A stretch of DNA of 64,000 nucleotides from Spirochaetia bacterium (GTDB lineage: Bacteria > Spirochaetota > Spirochaetia > SP-2023): NCBI GenBank assembly GCA_965225855.1, contig CBDDCK010000005.1, positions 32,001 through 96,000 on the forward strand, read 5' to 3'. The position numbers were made by a program, and so were the translations under genes. Positions within the stretch are counted from its first letter, which is position 1. Every line of letters begins with the position of its first letter. The notes beneath the pieces are model-generated. The model saw only the letters and a list, made by a program, of their open reading frames with translations. It did not search any database and was not told where the DNA came from. Positions 6,723 through 63,330 of this stretch are shown piece after piece.

Positions 6723-8567
6723 CTACCTTACAACACTAATACTAGTGCTTAGGTTTTCTGGACTACCAGGTACAAATTCTGCTGCTGTTTCCAGGTTGTA
6801 TGCACCATTATTATCACTTTTACCCCCCTTAACCAGTATCTTATCGACTTCCGCTTTTACACTACCCCTTAAAGTAATATTTAATCTTGTTGTACTTGCA
6901 CTAGAACCTGTGGCTCTGTTTACACCTTCATTTGCGTGCCGGGGTAATGGGTATCTCTTCTTACCATCACCGGATACAATCGTCAATTTGCTAAAGTCCC
7001 AGTCTGTAACTGCTCTCGGTAACCTGACACCTCTAATAGTTAACTCGCCTCCATAATAATCGTAGACTGCACTGGTGATGCTGGCTACATACCCACTAAC
7101 GGTAATCGGGTTGCTTGGGTCTTCTGCGCTACCACCTGCAAAGCCTGCTGCTGCTTCCAGGTTGTATGCACCATTAGCATCACGAACACCTTCCTTAACC
7201 AGTATCTTCTCGGCTTCCGCTTTTACACTACCGCTTAAAGTAATACTTAAGTAGGTTGTACCTGCACGAGAACCTGTGGCTGTGTTTTCACCTGCAGTTT
7301 CGTGCCGGGGTAATGGGTATCTCTTACTACCATCACCGGATACAATCGTCAATTTGCTAAAGTCCCAGTCTGCAACTGCTCTCGGTAACTTGATACCTCT
7401 AATATATAACTCGCCTGTATTAGCATTGTAGGTTGCACTGGTGATGCTGGCTGTATACCCGCTAACGGTAATAGGATTGGTTGTGTCTTCTGCGCTACCA
7501 CCTGCAAAGCCTGCTGCTGCTTCCAGGTTGTATGCACCATTAGCATCACTATCACCATCGTTAACCAGTATCTTCTCGGCTTTGGCTTTTACACTACCTC
7601 TTAAAAAAATAAATAATTTTGTTGCACTTGCTCGAGAACCTGTGGCTGTGTTTCTACCTAAAGTTGAGTGCTTAGGTAATTTGAATCTATTACTACCATC
7701 ACCGGATACAAGCGTCAATTTGCTAAAGTCCCAGCCTGTAACTGTTTTTGGCAAATTAGTACCTGTAATCTCTAACTCGCTTATACTAACATTGTAGGTT
7801 GCACTGGTAATTGCGGCTTCGGGTAGTTCAGGCGACTGATCTCCAGCTTGTTCGACTTCTTCAGCTTGTTCGTCTTGTTCGGCTTTAGGTTGCTTAGGCG
7901 ACTCCTCTTCGGTTTCTTCGGCTTCGGGTAGTTTACGCGACTCCTCTTCGGTTTCTTCGGCTTCGGGTAGTTTACGCGACTCCTCTTCAGCTTGTTCAGA
8001 CTGTTCGACTTGTTCGTCTTCTTCAGCTTGTTCAGCTTCTTCAGTTTGCTTAGATGGCTGATTGTCATCGGATACTTTAGACTGCTTATTTTCGGGTACA
8101 TTACTAACGTCCAAGTCTTTAGGTGTATTTAAACCCGCCCAAGCACCAGAGCTAGTAAGCAACCCTTTTTTTAGACCATTGCTATCCATACCGGGCTTGG
8201 CCTCAAGAACAGCTTTATCGTCATCGGTAAGTCTAAGCCAAAGCTCTGTGCCATCGCTTTTAATACGGTACTTACCTTGTTCAAGACCGTTACTATTTAC
8301 CCCAGTGGCTGGGTCATCTGCAGTATAGGAACTTAAGGCTACACCATTTGTTGGGCTTCCTACCGTGATAGTTTGGATTTGCGCTTGTTGCGCACTACCT
8401 AAGTGAGTACCTTGTACGGTTAACAGCGCCGTAGCAAAGTCGTAGATGGCGTTATTGATAGTCGGCCCATAAGACGGCGCATCATCGTCATCGGGTGGGG
8501 CGCAGGCAAAGGCCATAAAGGCCAGTAGCAATGCTACAGGCAATAAAAGTAGTTTGAGCTTATACAT
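6723..8567 (-). CDS. Modular surface lipoprotein, copy 1 (A - acidic linker - B - B - B; beta-rich, Ig-like repeats)
   Basis: GGAGG RBS then MYKLKLLLLPVALLLAFMAFA-C lipobox; ~120-aa repeats ITSATY...WDFSKL...GAYNLEAAAG; paralogous to 14417, 24718 and 63330. Confidence 0.9.
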   Translation of the reverse strand: MYKLKLLLLPVALLLAFMAFACAPPDDDDAPSYGPTINNAIYDFATALLTVQGTHLGSAQQAQIQTITVGSPTNGVALSSYTADDPATGVNSNGLEQGKYRIKSDGTELWLRLTDDDKAVLEAKPGMDSNGLKKGLLTSSGAWAGLNTPKDLDVSNVPENKQSKVSDDNQPSKQTEEAEQAEEDEQVEQSEQAEEESRKLPEAEETEEESRKLPEAEETEEESPKQPKAEQDEQAEEVEQAGDQSPELPEAAITSATYNVSISELEITGTNLPKTVTGWDFSKLTLVSGDGSNRFKLPKHSTLGRNTATGSRASATKLFIFLRGSVKAKAEKILVNDGDSDANGAYNLEAAAGFAGGSAEDTTNPITVSGYTASITSATYNANTGELYIRGIKLPRAVADWDFSKLTIVSGDGSKRYPLPRHETAGENTATGSRAGTTYLSITLSGSVKAEAEKILVKEGVRDANGAYNLEAAAGFAGGSAEDPSNPITVSGYVASITSAVYDYYGGELTIRGVRLPRAVTDWDFSKLTIVSGDGKKRYPLPRHANEGVNRATGSSASTTRLNITLRGSVKAEVDKILVKGGKSDNNGAYNLETAAEFVPGSPENLSTSISVVR

Positions 8568-8970
8568 AAGCAATACCTCCAACAATGGATAAAGATTCGC
8601 TAACCCATACGGGCTAGTATATAGCACCCTATTGTGTTAGGGGGGGAATTGAGTCAAGGCCTATATAAGGCTTTTTACAAGTTTTTTTGTGTTTTTTTAT
8701 GTTTGGGCACTTTTTTTGTGTTAGTGTTGTTTTTTAGTGTTGGTTGGGGGTTAAAAATCCATGCCAATCCATTTGCATTGAATATTATTGTAATCTATAA
8801 ACCATCAAAGCAACCAATCCATAGTTATAGACGCAACAAGTCGATAACTATGGACCGACCTAGTCCATAATTGTTACTTTTCAAAAGTACATAATTAGGG
8901 CATGGTTTGGTTTTTGTTGTGAAGGCTTGGGGGTGGGTTGTTGGTTGGGTGTTGGGGTGTTGGTTGGGGG
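8568..8970 (-). promoter_or_regulatory. Conserved upstream cassette of lipoprotein copy 1 (leader hairpin, TTGACT...C7 promoter, A-tracts, 147-bp element, G-rich tract)
   Basis: Highly similar to 14041-14416, 24719-25111 and, without the 147-bp core, 63331-63556. Confidence 0.8.
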
Positions 8971-9101
8971 CTTGGATTATAAAGCCCCGCCCCCTTTGCT
9001 TGCCTTTTTTGCTTACCTTTTTGTCGGGTAATTAATTATTGGAGGCTTGCGGCAACAGCAAGACCGTATTATAATGATTCTTGATTTTGAGGAGGTCGCT
9101 A

Positions 9102-61143: not shown

Positions 61144-61218
61144 AGATACAGCCTAATAGCCCAACAAAAAAGCCAACCAACTATTACTTACAGCAACAAC
61201 CAAACCTTACTTAAATAA

Positions 61219-63330
61219 TTAAAAAACTTGAATACTAGTGGTTGGGTCTTCTGGACTACCAGATACAAATTCTGCTGCTGCTTTAAGGTTGTATGCACCA
61301 TTAGCATCACTTTTACCCCTCTTAACCAGTATCTTATCGACTTCCGCTTTTACACTACCGCTTAAAGTAATATCTAAGCCTGTTGCACTTGCACTAGAAC
61401 CTGTGGCTGTGTTTTCACCTGCGGTTGCGTGCCGTGGTAATGTGTATTTCTTACTACCATCACCGGATACAAGCGTCAATTTGCTAAAGTCCCAGTCTGC
61501 AACTGCTGTCGGTAACCTAACACCTGCAATCTGTAACAAGCCTCTACTAGCAAAGTAGATTACGGAGGTGATTTTGGCTACATACCCGCTAACGGTAATC
61601 GGGTTGCTTGTGTCTTCTGCCCTACCACCTGCAAAGCCTGCTGCTGCTTCCAGGTTGTATGCACCATTAGCATCACTATCACCATCGTTAACCAGTATCT
61701 TCTCGGCTTCCGCTTTTACACTACCGCTTAAAGTAATCGTTAAGTAGGTTACACCTGCACTAGAACCTGTGGCTGTGTTTTCACCTATTGCGTGCTCGGG
61801 TAATGGGTATCTCTTACTACCATCACCGGATACAAGCCTCAATTTGCTAAAGTCCCAGTCTGCAACTGCTCTCGGTAACTTGATACCTCTAATATATAAC
61901 TCGCCTGTATTAGCATTGTAGGTTGCACTGGTGATGCTGGCTGTATACCCGCTAACGGTAATAGGATTGGTTGTGTCTTCTGCCCTACCACCTGCAAAGC
62001 CTGCTGCTGCTTCCAGGTTGTATGCACCATTAGCATCACTATCACCATCGTTAACCAGTATCTTATCGGCTTCCGTTTTTACACTACCAATTAAAGTAAT
62101 CTGTAAGCCTGTTGCACTTGCACTAGAACCTGCGGCTCTGTTTCTACTTTCAGAACCATAGGCTCTGTTGTTATGCCGGGGTAATGTGAATCTCTTAGTA
62201 CCATCACCGGATACAATCGTCAATTTGCTAAAGTCCCAGCCTGTAACTGCTTTTGGTAAATTAGTACCTGTAATCACTAAGAAGCCTATAGTAACATCAT
62301 AGGTTACACGGGTAATTGCGGGTGGTGGGTTTCCACTAACGGCCAAGGCTTTGGCTGTATCTAAACCCGCCCAAGCACCAGTGCCAACGCTAAGCAACCC
62401 ATCTTTTAGACCATTGCTATCCATACCGTCCTTGCCATTCAGAGTAGCTTTATCGGCATCGGTAAGTTTCAGCCAAAGCGCTGTGCCATCGCTTTTAATA
62501 CGGTACTTACCTTTTGCAAGACCGCGACTATCTGGCCCAGTGGCTGTGGCATCTGCAATATAGGAACTGAAGGCTAGGCCATCTACCGTGATGGTTTGGA
62601 TTTGGGCTTGGGTCGCAGTTGTAGCACTTAAGTTAGAACCTTGCAAGGTTAACAGCGCCGTGCCAACATTGTAGGTTGCACCGGTAATTGCGGCTTCAGG
62701 CGACTGATCTTCGGCTTTAGGTTGCTTAGGCGACTGATCTTCGGTTTCAGTCTTAGACTGCTTATCTTCGACTTCTTCGGTTTGTTCGGCTTGTTCGTCT
62801 TCTTCAGCTTGTTCGTCTTGTTCGACTTTAGCTTGCTTAGATGGCTGATTGTCATCGGATACTTTAGACTGCTTATCGGGTACATTCCTAACGGTTAAGT
62901 CTTTGGCTGTATTTAAACCCGCCCAAGCACCAGAGCTAGTAAGCAACCCTTTTTTTAGACCATTGCTATCCATACCTGTCTTGCCATTCAGAGCAGCTTT
63001 ATGTGGATCGGTAAGTCTAAGCCAAATCGCAGTGCCATCGTTTGCAATACGGTACTGACCTTGTTTAAGACCGTTACTATTTACCCCAGTGGCTGTGGCA
63101 GTATAAGAATTTAAGGCTAGGCCAGCTACCCTGATAGTTTGGATTTGGGCTTCTGTAGGACTTAAGTCAGTACCTTGTACGGTTAACAGAGCCGTAGTAA
63201 AATCGTAGATGGCGTTCTTGATAGTCGGCCCAGAAGATGGCGCATCATCGTCATCGGGTGGTGCGCAGGCCAAGGCCATAAAGGCCAGTAGCAATGCTAC
63301 AGGCAATAAAAGTAGTTTGAGCTTATACAT
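61219..63330 (-). CDS. Modular surface lipoprotein, copy 4 (A - linker - A - B - B - B)
   Basis: Same signal peptide; 5' part nearly identical to copy 2, 3' part closest to copy 1. Confidence 0.9.
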   Translation of the reverse strand: MYKLKLLLLPVALLLAFMALACAPPDDDDAPSSGPTIKNAIYDFTTALLTVQGTDLSPTEAQIQTIRVAGLALNSYTATATGVNSNGLKQGQYRIANDGTAIWLRLTDPHKAALNGKTGMDSNGLKKGLLTSSGAWAGLNTAKDLTVRNVPDKQSKVSDDNQPSKQAKVEQDEQAEEDEQAEQTEEVEDKQSKTETEDQSPKQPKAEDQSPEAAITGATYNVGTALLTLQGSNLSATTATQAQIQTITVDGLAFSSYIADATATGPDSRGLAKGKYRIKSDGTALWLKLTDADKATLNGKDGMDSNGLKDGLLSVGTGAWAGLDTAKALAVSGNPPPAITRVTYDVTIGFLVITGTNLPKAVTGWDFSKLTIVSGDGTKRFTLPRHNNRAYGSESRNRAAGSSASATGLQITLIGSVKTEADKILVNDGDSDANGAYNLEAAAGFAGGRAEDTTNPITVSGYTASITSATYNANTGELYIRGIKLPRAVADWDFSKLRLVSGDGSKRYPLPEHAIGENTATGSSAGVTYLTITLSGSVKAEAEKILVNDGDSDANGAYNLEAAAGFAGGRAEDTSNPITVSGYVAKITSVIYFASRGLLQIAGVRLPTAVADWDFSKLTLVSGDGSKKYTLPRHATAGENTATGSSASATGLDITLSGSVKAEVDKILVKRGKSDANGAYNLKAAAEFVSGSPEDPTTSIQVF

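Follow-up and report, generated by a model that had tools for sequence, protein, structure and literature searches.

The stretch of DNA analysed here (the window, 64,000 nucleotides, corresponding to positions 32,001 to 96,000 of contig C5 in the 2.71-Mb, five-contig and 94% complete genome of a Spirochaetia bacterium, GCA_965225855.1, hereafter G000) carries four dispersed genes for predicted lipoproteins, members of a large family of mosaic genes of which some sit between the ends of a transposable phage. Copy 1 (6723..8567, minus strand; 614 aa, lipobox AFAC) consists of an A domain, an acidic linker and three B domains. Copies 2 (14417..16153, plus strand; 578 aa) and 3 (22745..24718, minus strand; 657 aa) share the order A-linker-A-B-B, and copy 4 (61219..63330, minus strand; 703 aa) has two A domains (residues 35-151 and 213-335) separated by the linker and followed by three B domains (residues 337-461, 464-582 and 585-703). 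All four reading frames are intact and open from ATG to stop, each with a promoter-like cassette of its own. The coordinates, strands and domain counts given in an earlier annotation of the window (the original prediction) were thus borne out. A spirochaetal origin is likely, since among the 80 named loci listed for the PFOR of G000 a Spirochaetia metagenome-assembled genome reached the highest identity (78%), the others lying at about 44-53%.

That annotation had distinguished two types of first A domain (alpha in copies 1 and 3, beta in copies 2 and 4) and two types of last domain (x in copies 1 and 4, y in copies 2 and 3), and had proposed an antigenic-variation system in which the four copies recombine with each other. 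The motifs are present as described and the incongruence between the gene halves is genuine: at 25 of the 26 informative sites of the first A domain copies 1 and 3 stand against 2 and 4, and at 31 of the 33 of the penultimate B domain copies 1 and 4 stand against 2 and 3; the grouping in the last B domain is more mixed. The pairwise homoplasy index (PHI) test that had been suggested for the four copies supports recombination as the origin of the mosaics (p=0.0002). The pairs of types themselves are a sampling effect. Across the 106 copies of the genome, the first domains comprise 27 alpha, 4 beta and 75 other sequences and the last domains 26 x, 6 y and 74 other. Reciprocal exchange among the four is not supported: of the respective genes, greedy exact-match painting attributes 0/1719, 108/1641, 0/1592 and 136/2064 bp to other window copies. 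The distal upstream flanks had been said to follow the type of the 5' half; copies 2 and 4 indeed have a distal flank in common, but the flank of approximately 370 bp found in copies 1 and 3 is also present in copy 2.

Instead of a four-gene system, G000 encodes 106 near-full-length, dispersed paralogues, and the window copies are not each other's donors. A tblastn search located 117 family places, 106 of which are open reading frames (ORFs) of at least 400 aa that encode a signal peptide and a lipobox (a contig end truncates one of them), whereas the remaining ten or so are fragments or lack the usual start. The 106 genes occupy 218,145 bp, 8% of the genome, and are evenly spread over both strands. 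Their common architecture is an A domain and acidic linker followed by variable numbers of A and then B domains, and more than 20 architectures occur across the family. Identity to the nearest paralogue ranges from 52 to 91% (median 76%), and the promoter and signal region is strongly conserved. In the 3' flank a terminator-like hairpin is found (16203..16234, plus strand, in the case of copy 2); all 48 matches to this motif in the genome lie within 1 kb of a copy, and a function in termination may be presumed. The full-length protein was modelled as a string of beta-sandwiches (predicted local distance difference test, pLDDT, 65) and a single B domain as an Ig-like beta-sandwich (pLDDT 95). 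The best structural match of the B domain, an S-layer domain of SbsC (Z 8.2, root-mean-square deviation 2.5, 91 aligned), is modest and near the background of that search. For the repeat, no Pfam family scored above cut-off. Giant DUF4347, RTX and Calx-beta proteins from other bacteria also contain B repeats.

The family was not found by protein search in 40 relatives (three genomes of the same genus, 89-92% complete, and 37 others), nor by profile in five genomes of the same order (79-92% complete) or in the genome_contigs collection, and the Atlas search returned unnamed clusters only. The ENA contains six proteins that belong to the family but are missing from G000, and other public contigs carry additional members that have blocks in common. 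One protein, P0046, joins the 5' part of the copy C5_1495437 (100% identity) to a 3' part closest to that of C1_57912 (88-98%); it may be the allele of another strain or an unassembled paralogue. Other strains were seen in runs X4-X6. Two divergent paralogues (C5:353763 and C5:571748, to which P0092 is added) begin with a B domain, lack phage ends and are preceded by a promoter-like TTGACA-17-TAAATT sequence; they are possible ancestors of the amplified gene.

Patchwork exchange between copies pervades the family. For the tests of mosaicism we used the 99 copies with canonical ends, leaving out seven. The distances between first A domains and those between last B domains are nearly uncorrelated (Mantel r=0.07, p=0.065), and PHI is significant for the first A domain, the last B domain and the concatenate (p<=0.004). 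Among the 106 copies, 60 have an exact tract of at least 200 bp in common with another copy, the longest measuring 2.3 kb, and greedy exact matching to other copies accounts for a median of 88% of each gene. One block of 1.4 kb occurs in three copies; identical blocks in three copies at once need non-reciprocal copying. Most differences from the nearest paralogue are also found, together with 13 nt of context, in a third copy; the counts are 1111/1209 for the first A domain, 625/908 for the penultimate B domain and 174/302 for the last B domain. The exact tracts end at many different positions, and their sharing neither rises with proximity nor depends on orientation. Segmental, templated and non-reciprocal exchange, a trait of systems of the vlsE/tprK type, is therefore present in the family; recA is present in G000, and its product is the presumable agent.

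The flanks of many family genes stop at one shared boundary, and 62 such end motifs were found in G000. The same pattern of ends was not found in G003, and matches to the end pattern number only one or two in each of the genomes G001-G003. The left end starts with TGA and carries GATAACT repeats, the right end is its inverted counterpart, and one or two repeats are found per end. Each of the 28 left ends near a copy lies upstream and faces the gene, and all downstream ends are of the right type (27), with a single right end lying upstream of a copy. Seventeen cassettes of 2.4-3.9 kb have both ends. Five of these are bordered by a perfect 6-bp direct repeat, with none at 4, 5, 7 or 8 bp; the chance expectation is 0.03 (P about 5e-11). 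The cassettes retain 54-269 bp of the left arm and 33-349 bp of the right arm of a prophage described below. Remnants of both ends accompany 20 of the 106 copies, of the left end only 13, of the right end only 8 and of neither 65.

Copy 2 is the cargo of a complete mini-phage element of 2,716 bp. From left to right, it comprises a 6-bp target-site duplication (CTTTAA, 13571..13576, plus strand), a left end (13577..13730, plus strand) that starts with TGA, has two GATAACT repeats and is 81% identical over 162 bp to the prophage left arm, the lipoprotein gene, a right end (16245..16292, plus strand) that closes with TCA and is 88% identical over 43 bp to the prophage right end, and the second CTTTAA (16293..16298, plus strand). 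In the case of copy 4, the inner 5' flank of the cassette (63769..64000, minus strand) is common to copy 2, and the phage left end lies 243 bp past the window (G000:C5:96243). The original prediction assigned to copy 2, which is inverted relative to the other three, the role of a pivot for chromosomal inversions; since it keeps its original 6-bp duplication on both sides, its flanks bear no sign of net exchange. When the sites were rejoined as if empty, no reading frame was restored, and a search with the exact 20-mer of the right end returned one unrelated match. Downstream of copy 4 lies a second, TGT-starting end-like boundary (61018..61050, plus strand) that begins with TGTAACGG and is represented at 13 sites in G000, mostly 3' of family genes. 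It may derive from another transposable phage or an insertion sequence; no partner end, duplication or second transposase was found for this class in G000.

The same ends that bound the cassettes cap a 36-kb B3-like prophage elsewhere on the contig (C5:1,257,688-1,293,766). It encodes terminase, portal, capsid, sheath, tape-measure, baseplate and tail proteins, a repressor, Mor, GemA and a transposase. The latter is an unbroken protein of 586 aa (rve/phrog_310) with acidic residues at positions 144, 238 and 274; it is 28-38% identical to transposases of Pseudomonas and Burkholderia transposable phages, including BcepMu, and no solved structure was matched by sequence. A gene for an ATPase with Walker A and B motifs follows. 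Two further prophage right arms lie at contig ends, and G002 harbors a related prophage whose ends are built alike. Neither family members nor multiplied ends were seen in the sampled 280 kb of G002 and 120 kb of G001. Two related transposable-phage transposases per genome were noted in both G001 (C4) and G002 (C1), which belong to the same genus as G000. B3-type prophages produce 6-bp duplications, have TG..CA ends and measure 36-39 kb, according to the part of PMC8705779 drawn on here. Judged by these features, the end-bearing cassettes, and not the family as a whole, are putative non-autonomous derivatives of a B3-like transposable phage.

A pair of inverted copies, C5_1385406 and C5_1508714, is identical over approximately 870 bp of 5' sequence save for a run of C residues and has a cross-matching target 6-mer; this fits the product expected of replicative inversion. 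Separately, a 26.5-kb segment (G000:C5:1590138-1616622) is bordered on one side by a copy's right end and on the other by the left end of a different copy, and the 6-mers match. It resembles what would be a phage-mediated transposed segment, and as a single case it is within chance.

The run of C residues belongs to the predicted promoter. About ninety bases before each start the order is TTGAC(G/T), five bases, the C run, three bases and CA(A/C)AAT, the predicted -10 box. The run is present in all 106 copies, as C7 in 84, C6 in 18, C5 in two divergent copies, and C8 and C9 in one each. In 99 copies the hexamers are 14-15 bp apart and no A..T hexamer is found at 16-18 bp; the other seven (C5_800631, C5_1508714, C5_1901464, C3_28722, C5_597115, C5_353763 and C5_571748) have a spacing of 16-17 bp, reached via a longer run, a 3-bp insertion or another hexamer. 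For comparison, nAnAAT after TTGAC upstream of conserved genes has its mode at 17 bp (9/271 in G000, 15/365 in G003). We predict from these spacings that 14-15 bp corresponds to an off state and 16-17 bp to an on state. All four window copies have C7 with a 15-bp spacer and would be off: copy 1 (8631..8657, minus strand; TTGACT, C7 at 8640-8646, CACAAT), copy 2 (14327..14353, plus strand; TTGACG, C7 at 14338-14344, CAAAAT), copy 3 (24782..24808, minus strand) and copy 4 (63394..63420, minus strand). The run of copy 1 is one base shorter in run X2, and C6 variants of copy 2 appear at about one tenth of the contig depth in X1, a run in which no contig covers the copy 1 promoter. The only C9 copy (G000:C5:800480-803962) belongs to the five cassettes that retain intact ends together with the target duplication.

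The C run changes faster than the flanking DNA. Of the pairs identical for 150 bp on both sides, three of eight differ, and only in the C run (3/33 for 100 bp), and slippage was counted in 9 of 86 pairs for the C run versus 6 of 255 for A runs. Assembly error does not account for this variation, because orthologues with long G/C runs are not truncated more often (3/141) than others (47/842), which shows no homopolymer frameshift excess in the assembly, and because the C6 form is present in public contigs.

Amino-acid change is in excess at the tip of the protein. The ratio of nonsynonymous to synonymous polymorphism (pN/pS) rises from 0.85 in the first A domain through 1.24 in the penultimate to 1.68 in the last B domain (0.90, 1.61 and 2.58 for close pairs), values that derive from non-independent pairs and are biased by recombination. 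Variable residues of the last domain alternate with fixed ones along the predicted strands, which suggests one exposed face. The increase of pN/pS toward the last Ig-like domain agrees with the variable surface repertoire that had originally been proposed; display on the surface is presumed, as is a selective agent, be it host recognition, phage or ligand range.

Taken together, phage-driven amplification combined with recombinational shuffling and slippage switching is the model that best explains the data, and we regard it as probably correct. A lipoprotein gene would have been captured between the ends of a B3-like phage, as the end-gene-end layout suggests. The resulting mini-phage unit of about 3 kb would then have been copied in trans, leaving 6-bp scars, with the resident transposase and ATPase as likely agents. 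Recombination, putatively dependent on RecA, shuffles the approximately 106 copies into mosaics. The poly-C run in each predicted promoter varies in length and likely switches single copies on. Finally, selection would favor a variable outer tip on a lipid-anchored Ig-like stalk, in line with the excess of amino-acid change. Trans-mobilization of this kind is known from mini-Mu(LR) units, which move with MuA and MuB supplied in trans and amplify with inversions (PMC3145075, PMC5847225, as far as the parts consulted go). The original prediction is thereby partly supported: it had caught a true signal and a plausible purpose, and had the scale and the engine wrong. It overlooked how large the family is and that it has a poly-C spacer, as well as the transposable-phage ends, their target duplications and a transposase encoded outside the window.

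Several observations weigh against this model. Window copies 1 and 3 are among the 65 copies without an end remnant, which limits the demonstration of transposition to a minority of the family; the ends of the 65 have presumably eroded. The commonest cassette left end differs from that of the resident prophage (median 91% identity), which itself is missing the outermost bases on the left and whose tail genes are split. Protein identity between copies reaches 91% at most and therefore no very recent whole-unit copy has been caught; taken together, the three target matches across copies are within chance (1.2 expected, P=0.12). As to exchange, PHI for the penultimate B domain alone is not significant (p=0.61). 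As to selection, the pN/pS ratios carry the bias stated above. As to switching, the -10 box is a prediction and CAAAAT a weak match, the 84 copies at exactly C7 represent a narrow spread for a switch, A runs slip as well, and the C9 form was not seen in public contigs, which stay short within the repeats and do not bridge the C9 promoter. The rearrangement data lend only weak support. Gene order relative to G003 is kept across 1 of 93 copy-containing gaps, and short gaps with a copy are kept in 0 of 47 cases versus 59 of 176 ordinary gaps, yet equally long copy-free gaps are kept in only 4 of 32. In a sample of 54 orthologues, of 52 adjacencies in G002 G003 keeps 27 and G000 22, so the genus was already scrambled. 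GC skew per inter-copy segment is patchy, weaker than in G003 and not cleanly tied to the copies.

A more far-reaching version holds that the host has domesticated the phage as a repertoire engine. The transposase of the grounded prophage would still copy, invert and possibly package cassettes, recombination would rewrite the tips, and the poly-C dial would keep nearly all of the roughly 100 genes off, such that one or a few variants are displayed per cell. We put this forward tentatively, as possible and somewhat short of probable. If true, it would represent antigenic variation built by a phage, without silent cassettes or a dedicated recombinase.

Amplification and shuffling could also have taken place without a switch, with most copies co-expressed or set by a regulator (an inverted repeat lies over the -10 region), resulting in a coat of mixed composition or in a set of adhesins that differ in their ligands. 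About 100 copies are intact, with signal peptide, lipobox and ribosome-binding site, against some ten fragments, which suggests use; gene conversion, however, could keep silent copies intact as well. A second, TACACT-like hexamer nearer the start might serve expression, but has no -35 element at a usable distance. The narrow distribution of run lengths and the recurrence of B domains in giant repeat proteins also agree with co-expression, and vlhA genes of Mycoplasma gallisepticum with non-optimal repeats are expressed too (PMC6258824, in the part available). Against these stand the several routes by which seven copies attained 16-17 bp and the C run that outpaces its surroundings. On balance we hold a family without a switch to be unlikely.

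Even less can be said for a purely selfish expansion, in which a mini-phage transposon carries a lipoprotein gene as chance cargo and ectopic recombination yields the mosaicism as a neutral side effect. Phage ends with target duplications, the failure to find the family in the three genomes of the same genus and the even spread over both strands are what such an element would produce. However, the cargo with its promoter and signal region is conserved while the ends erode, pN/pS exceeds 1 and rises to the last domain, and the variable residues there alternate along the predicted strands. We consider selfish expansion very unlikely.

The model of the original prediction, in which the four copies swap halves by reciprocal crossovers and invert the segments in between, is largely refuted as a four-gene system and retains hardly any probability. 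The four-gamete pattern it was built on is real. Moreover, 12 of the 17 two-ended cassettes have lost matching flanks (7 of the 12 have nested or odd ends), implying that crossovers or replicative events separate flanks, and hisD and the PFOR gene, which flank copy 3, have opposite orientations here and lie on one strand in G003. Nevertheless, the donors lie outside the window, neither proximity nor orientation has an effect, and blocks identical in three copies require non-reciprocal transfer.

That assembly chimeras or collapsed strains created the copies and their mosaics is highly improbable: the five contigs are interrupted within copies or phage arms (prophage right arms at the start of C3 and the end of C4, lipoprotein copies at the starts of C2 and C4, with C1 and C5 overlapping by 743 bp) and no public contig spans a whole cassette, but the copies differ by 9-48% from their nearest paralogue and have unique flanks, which makes them too divergent for collapsed haplotypes, exact 6-bp duplications are not expected from mis-assembly, contamination is 0.68%, more members with shared blocks are found on other public contigs, and the summed contig depth over the genes is many times that of unique flanks in runs of two studies (a rough measure, one study possibly being the source of the assembly).

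Other known mechanisms were rejected. For a diversity-generating retroelement, no reverse transcriptase (PF00078) was found in G000 at its 94% completeness; moreover, most differences have their template in a paralogue, and they are mixed in type. For mobilization by REP/RAYT or IS200 elements there is no PF01797 match. Loss of mismatch repair is contradicted by a MutS-family gene (MutL was not searched for). A site-specific shufflon or invertase disagrees with tract ends at many positions and with G000 having just two tyrosine recombinases, both encoded outside the window (serine recombinases were not searched for). In a silent-cassette system one would expect a single expression site with promoterless donors, rather than 106 copies with signal peptide and promoter-like motif and about ten fragments.

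The spirochaetal surface proteins VlsE of Borrelia and TprK of Treponema are diversified by segmental recombination into one expression site from silent cassettes. In the present family, each copy is full-length and has a promoter-like sequence to itself.

The comparisons that follow are limited to the parts of the cited sources that were available. Similar to engineered mini-Mu(LR) (PMC3145075, PMC5847225), cargo lies between phage ends, the transposase would act in trans and chromosomal amplification would be accompanied by inversions; the present system differs in being natural, with B3-type 6-bp ends, a host lipoprotein as cargo and about 100 diverged copies, its mobility being a prediction. 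With B3-like prophages of Leptospira (PMC8705779) and BcepMu it has in common TG..CA ends, a 6-bp duplication, a size of about 36 kb, a DDE transposase with ATPase and a spirochaete host. Those are whole prophages, whereas most ends here bound a non-phage cassette of about 3 kb.

Homopolymers in promoters of surface-protein genes are described for vlp of Mycoplasma hyorhinis (PMC10502178) and tp0126 of Treponema pallidum, where the run lies between -35 and -10 and 17 bp is optimal (PMC7864442). In our case the run is poly-C, the approximately 106 genes are dispersed on a mobile cassette and encode unrelated proteins, and switching is predicted. The vlhA genes of M. gallisepticum likewise comprise dozens of intact lipoprotein genes, each with a repeat-bearing promoter, yet they form 3-5 clusters and have GAA repeats upstream of a promoter without sigma-70 consensus, and phage ends go unmentioned in that portion of the text (PMC6258824). 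The family would work like the vlp and vlhA repertoires without being a member of them, or of vlsE/tprK. In Orientia tsutsugamushi a mobile element, RAGE, is amplified up to about 93 times, with multiplied cargo families and a scrambled genome (PMC10732058); RAGE belongs to the integrative and conjugative elements and has mostly degraded copies, while here a pair of phage ends is the vehicle, which erodes as the cargo stays intact. Mu-like DNA of CampMu in Campylobacter jejuni provides sites of large reversible rearrangement under phage pressure (PMC1950947), an amplified cargo family being unmentioned in the available part.

Our literature search, for which subscription papers were mostly outside coverage, listed no natural phage-end cassette amplifying a surface gene family. 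Large families of surface antigens are usually ascribed to unspecified duplication, but here the vehicle has left readable scars and the parent prophage is present in the same genome. The system would be a natural counterpart of laboratory mini-Mu amplification, tied to a predicted promoter switch and to a lineage-specific expansion to 8% of the genome. It also provides a search recipe for other genomes, namely many phage ends and few phages, and prompts one to ask which agent selects for such variation in a spirochaete that is uncultured.

Several neighbours in the window deserve mention. In an ORF of 551 aa (55395-57050, minus strand) the thiol-activated cytolysin domain PF01289 was recognized (E 1e-41). 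The segment 2840-6214 (minus strand) encodes two DUF285 repeat proteins in tandem, the upstream one behind a canonical TTGACA-17-TATACT promoter-like site. Directly downstream of copy 3 lie short coiled-coil repeat ORFs (20901-22514, minus strand), which may belong to a 12-member family of similar ORFs of which eight lie within 1.5 kb of a lipoprotein copy. The tetratricopeptide repeat (TPR) gene at 49274-51960 (plus strand) has 132-bp tandem repeats running past its stop, and an 11-member TPR family at C5:110-127 kb adjoins a family of seven. The unique segment at 9982-13603 is found on one X1 contig at depth 8 versus 14-28 for other unique parts, a hint at most, contig depth being no measure of a share of cells.

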